Numbered from the stretch's first letter, positions 4,664-55,616 are shown. The stretch: 64,000 bases of DNA from Marinicella sp. (GCA_965230295.1 OZ246001.1:1856001-1920000), one strand, 5' to 3'. Notes: generated from the sequence alone by a model not told the origin. Translations and numbers: made by a program.

Positions 4664-4930
4664 CTGCGTTCAGCCAATGCTTTGTTCTGATATCTTCTGT
4701 CCGGGCATAAACTATGAACCCATAGCCATGAATTGAGTAAGGTCATCGGCGATCGGGACGATTGTGCTCCAATGATTGCCTATGGATGATTGATCTTGAA
4801 ACCATGAAGAAAATATCGAAGTTCATCAAATTGTCATTGTCCTGCCATAAAAACAAAACTTATTGAAATTACACTCTCAATTTTTCTTTGAGCGGTTGTT
4901 AAACCACGACACCCATATTTGGAGATTTTT

Positions 4931-6472
4931 ATGAAAGTGATTAATTGGTATACCATCAAAACAATTATTCTGTTGGCAGTAACGTGTGGCACCCATGCGA
5001 GCATCAAATTGGACAAAATCAACAGCCTGTCAACAGGATTAGGCGAGGGCTCTGGCGAGATCAGCAGTTATGATGCCGGCAGTCAAAAACTGTTTGTGAT
5101 TAACTCGGGCTTTGCTTCATTCAGTATCTTTGACTTGACTGACCCCGCCACATCCAGCGGCAGCACTGTCATCGACCTGAGTTCATTTGGCGCAGGGCCG
5201 AACAGCATCGCCAGTTACAATGGCCTGGTGGCAGTTGCGATTGAAGCGAACACAGTCACTGACAATGGCACCGTGGAATTTTTTGATGTTGATGGCGTAC
5301 ACCAGACCAGCGTTACCGTGGGTGCCTTGCCTGACATGCTGACCTTTAATCAAGACGGCACAAAACTCATAGTGGCCAATGAAGGCGAACCGGATAACGG
5401 CATTAATCCGTTGGGGTCAATCAGTATCATTGATATCAATAATGGTGTGCCCGCAGCCAATGCCAACAATTTAAGTTTCAGCGCTTTCAATGTGGGTCAA
5501 CCCAGGAATGGTGAATTACCAGTTGATGTCATCATTGCTCCTGGTGTTGCAGTTGCAGATGATTTAGAGCCTGAATATGTGGCCATCAGTGTGGACAATA
5601 CCCAGGCGTTTGTTACCTTGCAAGAAAACAATGCGGTGGCTGTCATTGACCTGGTAACACCAGCGATCAGCAGTATCCAGGCTTTGGGGTTTAAAGATCA
5701 CAGCCTAGCAGGTAATGAATTGGATCCCAGTGACAGGGATGGCAATGGTGGTTCTGGTGCCATCAATATCAACAACTGGCCAGTTAAAGGCATCTATATG
5801 CCCGATGCGATTGCTACAGTTAACATTCAGGGTACTGATTACTACTTAACGGCCAATGAAGGTGACGCCCGTGATGAGGATCAGAGAATCAAAGATTTGG
5901 TGTTAGATCCCACGGCTTTTCCTGATGCTGCAAACTTACAACTGGACGCTCAACTGGGACGATTGGATGCCCAAACCAATTTAGGCAATACGCCCAATGG
6001 TTTTTCTGAATTGTTTGTTTATGGCGGTCGATCATTCTCAATCTGGAATGGAATCACAGGTGCCCAGGTGTTCGACTCTGGCAGCGAAATAGCTTATAAA
6101 ATTGCAGAATTAACGCCGGGATTGTTCAATGCCAACAATGCCTCTGCTGCTGATTTTGATGAGCGAAGTGACAACAAAGGTGCAGAACCAGAAGGCATTA
6201 CCACAGCAAACATCAATGATAAAGTATATGCTTTTGTGGGTCTGGAGCGGGTTGGTGGTGTCATGGTATATGACGTGACCGATCCAGCACTGGCCAGTTT
6301 TGAAAGTTATCAGCCTGCCACCGATGGTGATGTGGCACCTGAAGGTTTGTTATTCATTGCAGGTAGTGATAATGGTTCAGGTCAGGACTTGTTATTGGTC
6401 AGTTATGAAGATACAGGAACCATTGGTATCTTTCGTTTGATCGATGTAATTTTTGAAAACAGCTTCGAGTAA
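4931..6472 (+). CDS. Secreted choice-of-anchor I / alkaline-phosphatase-associated beta-propeller protein ending in DVIFENSFE
   Basis: Signal peptide; GALPDMLTF, VANEGEP, DLEPEY, TLQENNA, YMPDAI, TANEGD, RSDNKGAEPEG, GLERVGG motifs; GGAGA RBS before ATG 4931. Confidence 0.85.
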   Translation: MKVINWYTIKTIILLAVTCGTHASIKLDKINSLSTGLGEGSGEISSYDAGSQKLFVINSGFASFSIFDLTDPATSSGSTVIDLSSFGAGPNSIASYNGLVAVAIEANTVTDNGTVEFFDVDGVHQTSVTVGALPDMLTFNQDGTKLIVANEGEPDNGINPLGSISIIDINNGVPAANANNLSFSAFNVGQPRNGELPVDVIIAPGVAVADDLEPEYVAISVDNTQAFVTLQENNAVAVIDLVTPAISSIQALGFKDHSLAGNELDPSDRDGNGGSGAININNWPVKGIYMPDAIATVNIQGTDYYLTANEGDARDEDQRIKDLVLDPTAFPDAANLQLDAQLGRLDAQTNLGNTPNGFSELFVYGGRSFSIWNGITGAQVFDSGSEIAYKIAELTPGLFNANNASAADFDERSDNKGAEPEGITTANINDKVYAFVGLERVGGVMVYDVTDPALASFESYQPATDGDVAPEGLLFIAGSDNGSGQDLLLVSYEDTGTIGIFRLIDVIFENSFE

Positions 6473-35714: not shown

Positions 35715-36908
35715 CTATTCAAAATCATCCGCAAAAATCATGTCATCGGCTAAAGTTGGCCCAGTGATTTTCAGCAACCCAGACCAGGCCACTGCATACA
35801 ATTCGCCATCCTCGCTTTCGCCCATGCTGGTGACTGCAAAACCGCCAATCAACACACCCATATCAAAAAATTCCCAGCCATTGGTGGTTTCACGTGCCGC
35901 AAAATACCTGCCATCACACCAATCTGTAAACAAATACCAACCGTACAGTCCTGCATAATCTGAACCGCGGTAGCGATAGCCACCCACGGCGGTACAGAAA
36001 TTGCTACCAGGTTGGTCATGTTGTAGTGCTGCTATGGGTAAATCATTGGGGCCATTGCTGTCACAACCTCCTAGCCCTGAAAAGTCAGCCCCCTCAAAAC
36101 AAGGCCAGCCATAGTTTTGACCACCACTGCCAGCCGGTGTGTGATTGAATTCTTCCCAAGTGTCTTCGCCCACATCGCCAATGAACAGGTCTCCATTGAT
36201 TCGGTCATGGGATATCCGCCAAGGGTTGCGTAAACCACTGACCCACACTTCATCGGCACCTGTTGTATTGGCATATGGGTTGTCAGCTGGAATGGCATAG
36301 TTTCTGTCACCATCACCCGGGAAGTCATCGCCATCCACATCTATGCGCAAAATCTTCCCTAACAGGCTGTCTAAATCTTGTGATGCCATGGGGTCACCAC
36401 TGCCATCTCCAGAACTGATGTATAAAAAACCATCAGTTGGGCCAAAGCTTAAATCGCCGCCGTTATGAGCGCCAAAGGGCTGCACAAAGGTTAACACCAT
36501 TTGAGCGGAAGCGGGGTTGGCCACATTGATGTCACCTGCTGATACACTGTACCGCTCAATCACCGAATCACCGCTTAAGTCGGTGTAATAAACATAGAAA
36601 AAGCCGTTATTGGCGTAATTGGGATGAAAGGCCAGGCCGAGCAATCCACGCTCTCCTCCGGATGTGATGATGGCACTGATGTCTAAAAATGGCGTGGCCA
36701 AATGAATGCCATTCTCAACCACTTTGATTTGTCCACCTTGTTGAGTGACAAACAAGCGATCACTGCCATCACCCGCGTTGGTCACACTGACTGGATTGGT
36801 GAATCCGTTGGCCACATCTTCGGTACCTAAAAAGGCCGGCTGAGCGACGGCAACTCCGGTGAACAACATGGATATTACCCATGCGACAATCATTGATTTA
36901 TTTTTCAT
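35715..36908 (-). CDS. Secreted PQQ-dependent sugar dehydrogenase (GSDH beta-propeller) ending in DMIFADDFE
   Basis: Signal peptide; GERGLLGLAFHP, HNGG, LLGKILRIDVD, GLRNPWR, DVG, NYGWP. Confidence 0.9.
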   Translation of the reverse strand: MKNKSMIVAWVISMLFTGVAVAQPAFLGTEDVANGFTNPVSVTNAGDGSDRLFVTQQGGQIKVVENGIHLATPFLDISAIITSGGERGLLGLAFHPNYANNGFFYVYYTDLSGDSVIERYSVSAGDINVANPASAQMVLTFVQPFGAHNGGDLSFGPTDGFLYISSGDGSGDPMASQDLDSLLGKILRIDVDGDDFPGDGDRNYAIPADNPYANTTGADEVWVSGLRNPWRISHDRINGDLFIGDVGEDTWEEFNHTPAGSGGQNYGWPCFEGADFSGLGGCDSNGPNDLPIAALQHDQPGSNFCTAVGGYRYRGSDYAGLYGWYLFTDWCDGRYFAARETTNGWEFFDMGVLIGGFAVTSMGESEDGELYAVAWSGLLKITGPTLADDMIFADDFE

Positions 36909-49576: not shown

Positions 49577-50221
49577 ATGAAAAAAATAATCACAACAGTC
49601 AGTGCCATGACGCTGACCATTCCTTCTGGATCCTCCACAGCTGCAGATTCAAGTTATGAGCCCATCACAACAGAAGACATCGAGTTGATCTATGCCGAAG
49701 GTGAAAACTTCAAAGGCAGTGGCTTCATTGACTTAGACGTACAAAAGACGGTGTTGTTGTCCTATGATGCGGATGGCAGCGGTGATGTGACGTTAGGCGA
49801 TGAGTTGAAATATTCAGTACTGGTGACCAATCTTGATAGCGTTGAAGCATCTGATGTGGTATTGCTGGATTTTCTCGAAAGTAAAATTGAGTTGAACTTA
49901 GGTACTGTGGCCATCACCCAAGGATTCGTCGTTTCTGGTAATGGCATGTCTGATGACAGCAGCTTGGTACATGTTGACTTTGGCAACATAGCGCCCAATT
50001 GGTTTGCTTTGGTCGACTTTGATGTAACGGTTACTGATTTGCGACCTGGGTATAATTTGATCGAAAATTCTGCTGAAGTTTATGGCCCATCAGGATCCTT
50101 CTTCGTTTCTGATGATCCAACAACACCCTTATTTGACCCCACCCAAATAGATGCTTATGGCGCTTATCCGGATTTGATTTTCGAAGGCGGTTTCGAATTC
50201 AATGGCAGTGGTGGCTTTTAA
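49577..50221 (+). CDS. Exported single DUF11 (Ig/pilin-like) domain protein with DLIFEGGFE near the C-terminus
   Basis: LDVQKT..GDELKYSVLVTN..ASDVVLLD..G.I....V.FDVTV..IENSAEV..SDDP pattern. Confidence 0.8.
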   Translation: MKKIITTVSAMTLTIPSGSSTAADSSYEPITTEDIELIYAEGENFKGSGFIDLDVQKTVLLSYDADGSGDVTLGDELKYSVLVTNLDSVEASDVVLLDFLESKIELNLGTVAITQGFVVSGNGMSDDSSLVHVDFGNIAPNWFALVDFDVTVTDLRPGYNLIENSAEVYGPSGSFFVSDDPTTPLFDPTQIDAYGAYPDLIFEGGFEFNGSGGF

Positions 50222-51128: not shown

Positions 51129-54100
51129 TCATTCATCGATTTGTAACAGCTCTAGCCATTGTGCTGTGTGATCTTCAAGCCAATGATGGTCTGACACCCA
51201 GGCCCTCATGGTCTGACCATTGTCATACAACAATTGTCGGTCATTGTCATAAGCCTCCAATTGGTCCTTCCACAGTTTGGGCTGGTTGGGCAAAAGATCA
51301 GCAGGACTGTTTTGATAACAAGGCAAATCAGAAGCCAAAACAGGAATGCCCAGCGCGCCATACTCCAATAGTTTCAAGGCGCTCTTGGCTGCATTAAAGG
51401 CATTGTCCACCAGCGGCGCGATGGCTAGGTTCAAACCAAGTTGTTGTAGTTTTGCTGGATAATGAAGCAAGTTTACTGGCGAATGAAACTCAATCATATT
51501 GAGGTCAATGCCCTCAGGATGATCACCAAAAAACACCCAATCAAATTGATGATGGGTCTGTTCAACCAGTGGTTTGATCCAAAGTAAATCTGCTTGGTGT
51601 TGCCCTGCACCAGCCCAGCCTATCCGTAATTTCTTTTCTGTAGGAATGGCGTTTTGGACTTGAGGCCACAGGGTTTTGGATAGCCGGTTGGGTATCACTT
51701 TGATGTTTCTGTGCCAATTTTTACATTGTGTTGCAAGTACATCAGAACTGACCAATAAAGTGTCTGCCAGAGAACAGGCCAGTTTGATGCGGGTACCCAC
51801 ATCATCGGGGACTTTATTGGTCATTGGGCTGTAATCAGGAATTTGGGTCAACAAATCATCAAGACTGATGATGGTGTGGATGTTGAGTTGTTTGTGGTAC
51901 TGGTGTAAAGCCTTCAGTTGTTTATCGGCATAAAACCCGTGTAACAACAATGCATCAGGTTGTAACCTTGCCAGCTCATGCGGAGAGGGCACCCAATGTC
52001 GGTGTTTCGTGGACATGAATTGCACACTGATTTTGTTTTCTGCAGCCAACACATTCAGTGGTGATTTAACCCGGTAAAAACCGCTGGCCCAGTCATCTTG
52101 GGCATATGCGACCACTCTGGGAAGGGTTTTGGGTGTTTTAAAAACGACATGAACCAAATCCAGGTTGCAAGGGTATGTACAGCTCAGTGCTGGTGAATAA
52201 TTACTGTGAGTGGGCTGATGTAAACTGGCATCAATGATGTCCATTCTTTCGCTGGCCAGGGTGGTCTTGCTTTGAGTAAACTGCAAATAAGGGATGCCAT
52301 GTTTATGCCAGCCTGGATCATTGCTGATACCGATTTTAAATCCTGCTTGCTGTAAAGCCTGGGAGCACCTCAGTGCTTGATAAAACCCGTTTGGCGTTAA
52401 AATTTCTGAACGAACCGTTTGCCACGCTGCTTGCGAAAATAGCATCATGTCATCATCGAGCAGTTCGTGTTCTGTGGCCGATCCCGGCCAATCAAATCGA
52501 ATGTCCCTGATGCGGCCTATGCCATGAAAGTGAAGGTCGCTGCCATACTTTTTTGCCAACAAGTGGTTCCGGTTGCCCTCTGTGGCAGCAGGCATACTGA
52601 TGGCATCCAGTTCTGAGTCTTGTAAGGAGGTGATGAGTTTTTCTATGCAGTCATCATTGGACATGCGCACATTGTCATGCAATAACATGAAGTGGGTATA
52701 AGCTTTTTCATCAATCGTTGGGGTTTCATCTTGTTGGTTTTCCACATCAAGGTGTATCACATCGGTCAGGCCGTTGATGACGGTGTTTTGCTGACTGATC
52801 AGTTTAACGACCCCCTTGATTTGTGACTTTGGTAATTGACTTGCTAACAAAATCAGCAGTTTATATGGTTTACTTTTAACCTGTTTTTTTTGTGGGGCTG
52901 ATTTCCATTTCTTGACCCAAAGTTGATCCAGAATGGTGTGGCTGAAGTGAGGAAAGTAACTGACCTGATTGGTTTGGTGGGCTTTTCTGACCAGCTGTCT
53001 TAATGGCTGTGGTTGTTGTAGGGTTTGTTGTAACAAATCTGCCTTCCAAGCTGATTTTTTCAGCAATAAACAGCCAACTATTTGATGTCCGGCATCAAAG
53101 TTTGTCCAGGAAAAGCCAGCTTGAAACTGAGGTGCGTAGATTTGCTGTGTTTGGTTATGTAAGGCAAAATCAGCCAATCCCAGTTTGGCATTTGTGGCGG
53201 TGAATGAGGACATCCAGTTGCCGATGTTTTCATTGATGTGAGCCCCGGCCTCAATGATCAAAACGGTGTCAGCGTCTGTGTGTGCCAAGTCTTTAGCATC
53301 AATAAATTTTGGTGATTGTAGGTGTGTTTTGATGTTGTTTTGCGACTTTAAAAAAAGTTCATCAATCGTTCCCAACAGCAAAACAGGACAACCGCTGGGA
53401 GGTGTCAGCCAATCAGCACCTGCTTCCAGAGTTTGTGGAGCTTCAATCCACATTTGCATGGATTGATAGGCATTGGATCTTGGTGGAGGAAGTAAACTCA
53501 ATTCAAGACCACCGGGTTTTACCCATGTGCGGCTTTGTTTTGTGGTTATTGATTGGTGGTATTGACGTTCCAATACTGCGGTTAAATTTTCATTGTCTTG
53601 CACGAATTCGATTGATCTGATGGCATCATTTTGTTGTTGTTTCTTAATGAAATTTTCAATGGCATTAACCAAACTTGCTAAGTTGTTGTTTTGATATAAA
53701 AATCCGTTAACGCCCTCAGTGATGCGTTGACCATAGGCGCCCAAATCAGGCGCCACCACAGGGACACCATGTATCCAAGCTTCTGTCAGTGTGATGGAAT
53801 AGGTTTCTGGAATTTGGGCAGTGAAAACCACCAAGTCAACATCTTTCAGCAGTTTGCCCAGGTTGTCTTTATCATAACTGCCAGTGATGGTTATGTTGGT
53901 GTGATCCAATTGATCTTTGTATTTTGGATCAACCCCCCCGATGATTTGCCATCCAATGGCAGGGTTGTTTAAACGATGGTAAAGATCAATGAACAATTGT
54001 GCCCCTTTGAGGACGCCGAATTGACCCAGGAATGCCAACCGCAATTTACCCGGGTTAAGGGGTTTGAGTCGAGCGACTTGACTGGGGTAGTAGCAAGGAG

Positions 54101-55616
54101 AAAACACTTGGGAATGCTCACTGATTTCTGGAAAGATTTTTAAGTAGGCATTGCGTAAATAATGGCTGGCGAACTGTATTTTTTCTGCACCAGTGAGTGT
54201 TTTGTGCCATATTTTTTTTCTGATTTGCAAAAATGATTGGGTGGTTAATCGTGTTTTTTGCGTTTTTTTGCTGAGGCATTTGAGGCATTGTTCACTGGTT
54301 TCGTCACTTTGATTGTTGCCACAAAAAACTTCTTGTTTATTGTTGGTGGTACTCAAGCTGAAAATCTGGCAAAGGCCACTGTGGTCATGAACAAAGAAAA
54401 AATACGGGATGTCCAATTGTTGACAAATCAAGGGCCAAATCTGACTGCCAACGCCAACCAGAGAGTGAAAGTGAACCATTTGGAAATTTCCTAACAACAG
54501 TAACTGATGGAAAAATTGATCCATGCTTGTTTGGTAGAGGTCCGCTGGTAAATTAAAAATGATGTGTTCAGGTTGGTTTAAGCCAACTGGTATCTCAATT
54601 ATTTTCAACTGTTCATCGACTGGAGATTCATTAAGAAACTTCTTGTTTCTGGGGGGCATGATGATTGTATGTTGTAATTCGTTGCTGAATTGCGCGATCA
54701 ACTCATGGGTGAACAATTCAACCCCACCTTTGTTATCAATTCCGTGCACCACATGTAAAACTTTCGATTGTCTGGTGTTTTTGGCTGCCAGCCAATGTTG
54801 AATGAGGTGGGTGGGGTTTTTGGTATGGAACGCTTCCACTTCACCACTGTACAGAGGCCACCGCAAATCCAGTAACTTTTGGTGTTGGGTTTGTAAATCT
54901 GTGGCTGTCGCTCTGAAGCTTTGTGATCCTTGGTGTTTGACATAGGCTGCCGGTGCACAAGCGACTTGCCATCCAGCTTGGCGGATCAGCATCGAATAAT
55001 CACATTCCTCTCCATAACCTGGGTCATAGAACGGATCAAACCCGCCCAGTTGTTGTAACACAGCTTGTTTGATCAATAAACAAAAGCCCACTGCAGTTGG
55101 TATGGGGTACCACATTCCTTTTAACGCTGTTAAATGTTCGATCTGGGTTGGGTCTTGGGTGGGTAGTGTCAGTATGGTTGCGTTGTTGGAAAGAGGGCAA
55201 ACCGCACCGACTTTTTCATCGCGGGCAACACACAGCATTGCGGCCAACCAACCATCAGTGACTTGGGTGTCAGCATTCAACAACAACACATGGTGGTCGA
55301 CTGTAGTCAGGTATTGGTTGACATTCTGTAGATACCCTAAGTTTTGTTTGCGATTGATTACAGTGACCTGGTCATGAACGGCCAAGGTGGACAAATATTC
55401 ATTAACCCGATGATCGGTGCTGGCGTCATTTAATAAGGTGATGAATTGGTACTGATCGGTGTACCTCAATAACGCATCGAGGCATTTAACCAATGCATCA
55501 AAACCATTGTAAACGGGTACAATGATTTCGACTTCAATCACCTCATCAGACTCATGGGCAGTATTCAGTATCTGATGCTTGGATAAGTTATTGAGGTATT
55601 GGTCGATGCGGGTCAT
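51129..55616 (-). CDS. Multidomain glycosyltransferase (GT2 + GT4 + degenerate GT2-like + C-terminal GT-B)
   Basis: IIVPVYN, LLNADT, GYGEECD; GGVE, ETYSITLTEA; D.WASGFYRV, RIGWAG, FNAAKS.LKLLEYG. Confidence 0.9.
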   Translation of the reverse strand: MTRIDQYLNNLSKHQILNTAHESDEVIEVEIIVPVYNGFDALVKCLDALLRYTDQYQFITLLNDASTDHRVNEYLSTLAVHDQVTVINRKQNLGYLQNVNQYLTTVDHHVLLLNADTQVTDGWLAAMLCVARDEKVGAVCPLSNNATILTLPTQDPTQIEHLTALKGMWYPIPTAVGFCLLIKQAVLQQLGGFDPFYDPGYGEECDYSMLIRQAGWQVACAPAAYVKHQGSQSFRATATDLQTQHQKLLDLRWPLYSGEVEAFHTKNPTHLIQHWLAAKNTRQSKVLHVVHGIDNKGGVELFTHELIAQFSNELQHTIIMPPRNKKFLNESPVDEQLKIIEIPVGLNQPEHIIFNLPADLYQTSMDQFFHQLLLLGNFQMVHFHSLVGVGSQIWPLICQQLDIPYFFFVHDHSGLCQIFSLSTTNNKQEVFCGNNQSDETSEQCLKCLSKKTQKTRLTTQSFLQIRKKIWHKTLTGAEKIQFASHYLRNAYLKIFPEISEHSQVFSPCYYPSQVARLKPLNPGKLRLAFLGQFGVLKGAQLFIDLYHRLNNPAIGWQIIGGVDPKYKDQLDHTNITITGSYDKDNLGKLLKDVDLVVFTAQIPETYSITLTEAWIHGVPVVAPDLGAYGQRITEGVNGFLYQNNNLASLVNAIENFIKKQQQNDAIRSIEFVQDNENLTAVLERQYHQSITTKQSRTWVKPGGLELSLLPPPRSNAYQSMQMWIEAPQTLEAGADWLTPPSGCPVLLLGTIDELFLKSQNNIKTHLQSPKFIDAKDLAHTDADTVLIIEAGAHINENIGNWMSSFTATNAKLGLADFALHNQTQQIYAPQFQAGFSWTNFDAGHQIVGCLLLKKSAWKADLLQQTLQQPQPLRQLVRKAHQTNQVSYFPHFSHTILDQLWVKKWKSAPQKKQVKSKPYKLLILLASQLPKSQIKGVVKLISQQNTVINGLTDVIHLDVENQQDETPTIDEKAYTHFMLLHDNVRMSNDDCIEKLITSLQDSELDAISMPAATEGNRNHLLAKKYGSDLHFHGIGRIRDIRFDWPGSATEHELLDDDMMLFSQAAWQTVRSEILTPNGFYQALRCSQALQQAGFKIGISNDPGWHKHGIPYLQFTQSKTTLASERMDIIDASLHQPTHSNYSPALSCTYPCNLDLVHVVFKTPKTLPRVVAYAQDDWASGFYRVKSPLNVLAAENKISVQFMSTKHRHWVPSPHELARLQPDALLLHGFYADKQLKALHQYHKQLNIHTIISLDDLLTQIPDYSPMTNKVPDDVGTRIKLACSLADTLLVSSDVLATQCKNWHRNIKVIPNRLSKTLWPQVQNAIPTEKKLRIGWAGAGQHQADLLWIKPLVEQTHHQFDWVFFGDHPEGIDLNMIEFHSPVNLLHYPAKLQQLGLNLAIAPLVDNAFNAAKSALKLLEYGALGIPVLASDLPCYQNSPADLLPNQPKLWKDQLEAYDNDRQLLYDNGQTMRAWVSDHHWLEDHTAQWLELLQIDE

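Follow-up and report, generated by a model that had tools for sequence, protein, structure and literature searches.

Tripartite C-terminal sorting signals, e.g., PEP-CTERM with exosortase, GlyGly-CTERM with rhombosortase, LPXTG with sortase, and MYXO-CTERM with myxosortase, need a short signature motif and a hydrophobic transmembrane helix, which are accompanied by a basic C-terminal cluster. They are lineage-restricted, occur in dozens of copies per genome, and are found on many unrelated proteins with signal peptides, including choice-of-anchor and DUF11-type families. In these respects they resemble a nine-residue C-terminal tag with the consensus D-[LV]-I-F-x-[DNS]-[GD]-F-[ED], which is the subject of the current study and was first noticed in three proteins encoded on a 64,000-nucleotide stretch of Marinicella sp. 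(GCA_965230295.1, OZ246001.1:1856001-1920000; hereafter the window, always at its full length). The tag exists genome-wide, is confined to C-termini, is carried by exported proteins of many families, and is spread across the order Lysobacterales in lineage-specific variants. Unlike the tripartite signals, however, it has neither a transmembrane helix nor a basic tail. Tagged proteins end 0 to 8 residues past the motif, which rules out the known mode of action of intramembrane and membrane-bound sorting proteases, and the tag termini are acidic, with Glu in 68 and Asp in 42 of the 110 tags counted below.

Other described C-terminal addresses are similarly close in some respects and distant in others. 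The C-terminal domain of type IX secretion systems (T9SS; Por_Secre_tail, PF18962/TIGR04183) also lacks a membrane anchor and is read after export on folded, Sec-exported cargo of diderm bacteria, but it is a folded beta-sandwich domain of approximately 70 to 100 residues from Bacteroidota, whereas the tag comprises nine conserved positions and occurs in Gammaproteobacteria. The beta-signal of outer membrane proteins (OMPs), which is recognized by the beta-barrel assembly machinery (BAM), is likewise an aromatic-rich C-terminal peptide of about ten residues that is read in the periplasm on Sec-exported proteins; it ends in Phe, Trp, or Tyr and forms the last barrel strand, whereas the tag ends in Glu or Asp on soluble propellers, repeat proteins, and enzymes. 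Ligands of PDZ and TPR domains, e.g., the YxF peptide of OMPs bound by DegS, GspC-PDZ ligands, and the peroxisomal targeting signal 1 (PTS1) bound by PEX5, are very short C-terminal addresses on folded proteins, but 42% of the tags are followed by extra residues, and the tested PDZ candidate, GspC, does not track the tag. Cargo of type I secretion (ABC/MFP/TolC) lacks an N-terminal signal peptide, whereas the tag carriers have Sec-type leaders and, in one case, a Tat-like leader. The genome itself contains no match to exosortase (PF09721) or to the T9SS tail (PF18962), and the best match to rhombosortase (TIGR03902) reaches 60.9 bits versus a cut-off of 84; sortase and myxosortase were not searched for. 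In the three window proteins, the tag lies outside every matching Pfam and NCBIfam model, and a search of the PDB with a profile of 18 tags returned only chance matches with E values above 3. In the accessible part of the literature on the motif strings, Marinicella secretion, and Xanthomonadales sorting signals, nothing relevant was found, subscription journals and supplements being outside reach. The view of the initial annotation that the tag fits none of the PEP-CTERM, GlyGly-CTERM, T9SS, and LPXTG signals is supported, if circumstantially, by the missing helix, the missing basic tail, and the missing family model.

The three tagged genes of the window and their tags are as follows (positions counted from the first nucleotide of the window).

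4931..6472, plus strand: gene for an exported choice-of-anchor I beta-propeller; ATG at 4931, with an upstream TTG at 4919 also open
6443..6469, plus strand: tag DVIFENSFE, with the stop codon (6470-6472) immediately after
35715..36908, minus strand: gene for an exported glucose/sorbosone dehydrogenase-type (GSDH; pyrroloquinoline quinone [PQQ]-type) propeller; PF07995 at 6e-35, signal peptide
35718..35744, minus strand: tag DMIFADDFE, abutting the stop codon (35715-35717)
49577..50221, plus strand: small DUF11-repeat gene; TIGR01451 at 25.3 bits (cut-off 24), weak signal-like N-terminus
50171..50197, plus strand: tag DLIFEGGFE, followed by a seven-residue tail FNGSGGF (50198-50218) and the stop codon

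The shared ending claimed for these proteins is exact on reading, all three following D-x-[ILV]-F-x-x-x-F-E. The choice-of-anchor I protein ends in FRLIDVIFENSFE-stop, the GSDH protein in LADDMIFADDFE-stop with the last residues DDMIFADDFE, and the DUF11 protein in YPDLIFEGGFE plus FNGSGGF-stop. The proposed family assignments agree with Pfam and NCBIfam, and in all three proteins the tag lies beyond the end of the matched models. The choice-of-anchor I protein matches NF038117 with 496 bits (residues 43-493), the NF038117/PF22494 choice_anch_I region spanning residues 39-501 of 513; the GSDH domain of PF07995 spans residues 37-279 of 397, and alignments of this protein to solved PDB structures cover residues 17-275 only, with the C-terminus outside. 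The DUF11 assignment is borderline, PF01345 scoring 22.8 bits versus a cut-off of 24.6 over residues 52-169 of 214. Regarding export, the N-termini of the first two proteins (MKVINWYTIKTIILLAVTCGTHAS and MKNKSMIVAWVISMLFTGVAVAQ, respectively) are plain signal peptides on reading, as had been claimed, but the third (MKKIITTVSAMTLTIPSGSSTAA) is weak and failed our heuristic signal-peptide test. A loose DNA pattern of the tag has six sites in the window versus 2.3 expected. Apart from the three tags, these sites are internal or noncoding, and the window thus contains exactly three tagged genes. On reading of the sequence, the DUF11 gene and a methyltransferase-like gene are directly followed by a 1,495-amino-acid (aa) multidomain glycosyltransferase-like open reading frame (ORF; window 51129-55616, minus strand).

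Three proteins were a gross underestimate of the scale. The window is part of a complete 4,008,074-bp contig with 44% G+C (C1 in the coordinates below), in which we called genes crudely, taking the longest ORFs (80 aa or more) and removing overlaps greedily; the resulting 3,424 ORFs cover 91% of the genome. The heptamer [ILVMF]F...F[ED] occurs 187 times in these ORFs: 64 times exactly at the stop, 46 times at 1 to 8 residues before it, nine times at 11 to 21 residues, and 68 times at 30 residues or more. Hence, 110 of the 3,424 genes, approximately 3% of the proteome, have a tag within eight residues of the stop, whereas the internal density (77 per about 1.22 million codons) would predict roughly 0.2 exact ends and about 2 ends within eight residues, i.e., the C-terminal excess is roughly 50- to 300-fold. 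The 77 internal copies are close to the roughly 85 estimated from typical amino acid frequencies, which means that the motif is special only at the C-terminus. A stop-free DNA pattern of the full nonamer gave the same picture, at least 27 of the 28 matches lying no more than eight residues from a stop codon (the remaining match is at C1:3178406).

The composition of the 110 tags, numbered from the hydrophobic residue that precedes the first Phe, is given below. The two Phe residues, the hydrophobic residue at position 0, and the acidic residue at +6 were set by the search pattern, and their counts are therefore not independent evidence.

Position -2: D in 86 of 110
Position -1: L in 36, V in 22, and P in 11 of 110
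Position 0: I in 93 of 110
Position +1: F in 110 of 110
Position +2: free
Position +3: D in 53, N in 25, and S in 21 of 110
Position +4: G in 58, D in 23, and S in 10 of 110; Arg in 2
Position +5: F in 110 of 110
Position +6: E in 68 and D in 42 of 110

Upstream of the tag, no position of the 110 sequences exceeds 0.5 bit of conservation. Downstream, 64 proteins end with the motif and 46 (42%) continue for 1 to 8 residues.

The carriers belong to many unrelated groups, the first three having already been described as non-homologous. When the last 20 residues were cut off and the remaining sequences were clustered by single-linkage BLASTP at 1e-5, the 110 proteins fell into 65 clusters, of which 54 were singletons and the largest had 16 members. 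Sampled carriers include FG-GAP propellers, DUF285 and leucine-rich repeat (LRR) proteins, CotH+LTD proteins, choice-of-anchor I and Q proteins, DUF11 proteins, and GSDH; a protein with trypsin and MAM domains ends in a degenerate tag, ...DLIFINGFGEV, with G in place of E. The carriers are also strongly enriched for export signals: a home-made and liberal heuristic called a signal peptide in 85 of the 110 tagged proteins versus 1,064 of 3,314 untagged ones (32%; odds ratio 7.2, p = 1.6e-21), an enrichment for which the initial annotation had proposed to test. About 17 of the 25 proteins missed by the heuristic have a plain leader on reading; the others are fragments, have doubtful starts, or, in one case (3,682 aa), are truncated at the contig end. 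A twin-arginine leader (NRRAFLQ) is present in one carrier (C1:3398354-3399637), which suggests that recognition of the tag follows export and takes place on the folded protein. The initial annotation had noted no tagged cytoplasmic protein in the window, and no clear cytoplasmic carrier was seen among the 110 tagged proteins.

One very large ORF (C1:3997021-4008072, minus strand; 3,682 aa or more) extends to just a few bases short of the contig end, and its N-terminal part probably lies on the other side of the start of this circular record; its C-terminus is a tag plus four residues, ...YIFKDGFEGVVP. A 70-kb island (C1:3783000-3857000; L081-L084) contains approximately 16 FG-GAP paralogues together with DUF285, LRR, CotH+LTD, and choice-of-anchor Q proteins, most of them tagged, and is broken by a tyrosine recombinase gene and a transposition-like gene set of the TniB/AAA_22 type.

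The relation of the tag to the fold was investigated for one family, choice-of-anchor I. In a search with the window protein, seven Marinicella loci (L001-L007) were the closest and matched the query to its last residue, whereas for the majority of the 73 other loci the alignment stops at approximately residue 501-506 of 513. Homologues from Thiohalocapsa, Psychrobacter, and Marinobacter end right after the last propeller strand, and others run on into different modules: the Lusitaniella protein has RTX-like repeats there, and those from a Saprospiraceae metagenome-assembled genome and from Aerococcus have long extensions. An AlphaFold2 (AF2) model based on a 38-sequence alignment (mean predicted local distance difference test [pLDDT] score of 87.7, predicted template modeling score of 0.89) has its last strand at residues 497-508, which takes in D505-F508 of the tag, whereas residues 509-513 (ENSFE) have pLDDT values below 50. 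Judged from these alignments and the model, the tag is an appendage that follows the fold. That the peptide might be an integral strand of its carrier is countered by the homologues that stop before it, although DVIF, which extends the last strand in the model, may have a partly structural role.

The add-on is also maintained. All eight orthologues from Marinicella keep the tag, in the forms DVIFENSFE, DVIFNNSFE (in three of them), DVVFKSSFE, EVLFGNGFE, DVIFKNNFE, and DVIFSNGFD; both Phe residues are kept through changes between TTT and TTC, position +2 varies freely, the stop codon stays in place, and directly past it the DNA similarity collapses. By this comparison, the tag is under protein-level selection. 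The 40 strict tag sites of the genome (pattern given below) have mixed codons and use all three stop codons, so the tag is not a repeated DNA element.

The apparent likeness of F-x-D-[DG]-F-E to the opening strand of ConA-like and MAM folds had led to the proposal that the tag docks by beta-strand complementation, i.e., that it is the orphan first strand of a lectin/MAM-type jelly-roll and completes a strand-less receptor at the cell surface. In several tagged proteins, the tag follows closely upon a MAM-like domain with the ending W-x-[IV]-D-D-[IV], an arrangement like that of tandem arrays, and the first half of the tag forms a strand in the AF2 model. On the other hand, the internal copies of the motif stay near the composition estimate (77 versus about 85), which means that no abundant domain of this proteome opens with the tag strand, the PDB profile search found chance matches only, and no strand-less receptor was identified. 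We regard strand docking, as proposed in the initial annotation, as unlikely.

According to the NCBI taxonomy, Marinicella belongs to the family Marinicellaceae of the order Lysobacterales. The spread of the tag was determined in samples of each group with defined patterns, and variants outside the patterns would escape. The strict pattern, I-F-x-[DN]-[G/D/..]-F-[DE]-stop, has 40 matches in the present genome (reversed control, 0), is found in all 24 other genomes of the family with 9 to 60 matches each, and has 1 to 17 matches in eight other families of the order. Three families, f2, f6, and f7, gave no match with it, but the conclusion that f6 and f7 are tagless proved to be wrong, since variant tags had been missed by the strict pattern. 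GSDH homologues end in ...GLIFQDRFEQ in f7 (genome G030) and in ...PLFSDGFESP in f6 (genome G029), and a looser, stop-free pattern found 31 matches in G030 (control, 0) and ten in G029 (control, 1), but none in any of three complete f2 genomes. In G030, adjacent genes for two exported proteins, a GSDH homologue and a MAM-like protein (L098:1495-4091), both carry Arg-type tags, IFQDRFEQ and IFLDRFEAPPAP, and the C-terminus of the neighboring protein reads ...QIFLDRFEAPPAP. The tag is thus present in 11 of the 12 sampled families, and the flavor of position +4 is lineage-specific: Arg in 24 of 31 tags of G030, Ser in 7 of 10 tags of G029, and G or D in 81 of the 110 tags of the present genome. 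Such variants are the pattern expected from a co-evolving partner.

Outside the order, the strict pattern gave a single match in 13 of 400 genomes and two matches in none, with single control matches in four; the loose pattern gave at most five matches per genome among 99 genomes, with controls of up to seven, compared to 83 in the present genome. Within the samples searched, the sequences place the tag in Lysobacterales only, with the highest abundance in Marinicellaceae.

The lineage variants also bear on the idea that the tag needs no dedicated reader and acts as an intramolecular or protective cap, perhaps binding Ca2+ through its Asp and Glu residues, that stabilizes the carrier or blocks carboxypeptidases. 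The tag is acidic and aromatic, its D-G suggests a turn, the model packs its first half so as to lengthen a strand, and no reader emerged from several tests. However, it is difficult to imagine one identical cap packing onto 65 unrelated folds, given that conservation upstream of the tag stays below 0.5 bit per position. Moreover, the last five residues are unstructured in the AF2 model, and a shared partner would more readily account for the lineage-specific change of whole proteomes to Arg or Ser at +4. A cap is therefore, in our opinion, distinctly unlikely.

In the search for a reader, three secretins were found in the genome, PilQ and those of the following two clusters.

C1:857482-867919, minus strand: complete Xps-type type II secretion system (T2SS) operon (E F G H I J K L M N D, with T2SSM_b)
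C1:654373-659829, minus strand: gspC(PDZ)-gspD-gspE-gspF cluster of a second T2SS, without pseudopilin genes alongside; ftsE/ftsX-like genes follow

PDZ domains bind C-terminal peptides, and the PDZ domain in the GspC of the second T2SS could recognize the tag as a signal for type II secretion. The carriers are folded Sec or Tat substrates, as this would require, the genome has both the Xps-type T2SS and the gspC(PDZ) cluster, and family f2 lacks both the tag and GspC. In a survey of 41 relatives with a protein query and the Pfam family T2SSC, however, GspC was absent from the matches in G032, a genome that is 96% complete and has 13 strict tags, as well as in G031; both searches agree on G032, and GspC-PDZ was rejected as the general reader. 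Furthermore, 46 of the 110 tags are not at the exact end, and none of the sampled genomes from other gammaproteobacterial orders carries the tag above background; GspC with a PDZ domain is present in many other Gammaproteobacteria. Taken together, recognition by GspC appears very improbable. As a marker, T2SSM_b was rejected as well: it was found in 38 of 41 genomes, including the tagless genome G036, and is uninformative because it is nearly universal in the order. Both profiles have to be read with f6 and f7 as tag carriers.

A rhomboid expansion was the third candidate to be rejected, as the copies do not track the tag: G032 has none, whereas the tagless G036 has five, one of them a true rhombosortase. 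The present genome encodes six rhomboid paralogues of approximately 200 to 240 aa (C1:1100914, 1147186, 1640901, 2232849, 2961789, and 3944852), all below the rhombosortase cut-off, and complete Marinicellaceae genomes have three to six copies. The copy at 2961789-2962250 sits between two tagged genes. The tag-rich island encodes an untagged Sortilin/Vps10-like BNR propeller of 1,084 aa with a signal peptide (L081:15806-19060, plus strand). Eukaryotic sortilin binds C-terminal peptides, which makes this protein a conceivable binder, but the family is widespread outside the order, and it was dropped as a reader candidate for that reason. No sorting enzyme was found in the 3.78- to 3.86-Mb island, which represents a paralogue expansion with transposon-like genes.

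The same island contains a gene for a hybrid sensor kinase (L081:5668-9522, plus strand; 1,285 aa) with a receiver and an AraC-type helix-turn-helix domain, whose N-terminal 790 aa are periplasmic and propeller-like and have no Pfam match at 1e-4. Sensing of C-terminal aromatic peptides is an established principle, DegS responding to the C-termini of OMPs, and exposed tails might analogously serve in sensing or quality control, a protease or kinase reading from them how heavily the envelope is loaded, without any sorting. The adjacency of the kinase is, however, a single case in a 70-kb paralogue island, and the presence of the tag on surface-type carriers (choice-of-anchor, DUF11, and FG-GAP proteins) would be left unexplained. 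We consider a pure sensing function extremely unlikely.

Overall, the confinement to C-termini, the diversity of exported carriers, and the lineage-specific flavors argue for a recognition tag that is bound after export by a co-evolving partner and directs secretion or surface docking, an explanation that we regard as on balance probable. In this reading, Marinicella and most other Lysobacterales have attached the tag to many unrelated proteins that leave the cytoplasm by Sec or Tat; once such a protein has reached the periplasm and folded, a lineage-specific partner, co-evolving with the tag, would bind the exposed tail and direct the protein to its final place, either across the outer membrane or, by retention or docking, at the cell surface. 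More specifically, and only tentatively, the tag may be the address of an undescribed post-Sec/Tat pathway of Lysobacterales, in which a dedicated reader co-evolving with position +4 delivers approximately 3% of the proteome onto the outer membrane or through it, with no need for a folded signal domain, a transmembrane anchor, or any of the known sortase-type enzymes; we give this a less than even chance. The proposal of a dedicated export or attachment system has circumstantial support with respect to the tag, which behaves like a lineage-specific C-terminal label of exported proteins at a position where relatives have other modules or nothing, while partner binding and the resulting sorting or docking are what we infer from it.

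Several observations weigh against recognition by a sorting partner. No reader was found among the candidates tried, and no shared partner gene is located near tagged genes, neither in the 70-kb island nor around three tagged genes of G028, a genome in which tags are few. The 1- to 8-residue tails of 46 of the 110 tags fit poorly with a reader of the PDZ or PTS1 type, which needs a free carboxylate at a fixed distance. The first four residues of the tag may have a partly structural role as an extension of the last beta-strand, as the AF2 model suggests. In addition, the signal-peptide heuristic is liberal and the gene calls are crude, being longest ORFs after greedy removal of overlaps, and the sources searched contain no localization, proteomic, or binding data on any tagged protein.

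In the past, C-terminal tags have led to envelope machineries, e.g., sortase, exosortase, rhombosortase, and T9SS. With approximately 110 tagged proteins that share nine residues and lack the features required by the known machineries, the reader in Marinicella should be one that has not yet been described. The current study contributes a count for a complete genome, a contrast between order and class with two patterns, tests for the add-on nature of the tag and for selection, the description of tags with Arg or Ser at +4, and the rejection of three possible readers. For the search for the partner, handles are provided by these lineage-specific tag forms and by family f2, which lacks the tag. 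The tag is also a candidate for a portable label in protein display or secretion. For Lysobacterales, including environmental representatives such as Marinicella and Dokdonella, it would serve as a simple predictor of the secreted or surface proteome. If its interpretation as an address label is true, it would represent a new system for secretion or surface attachment in diderm bacteria.

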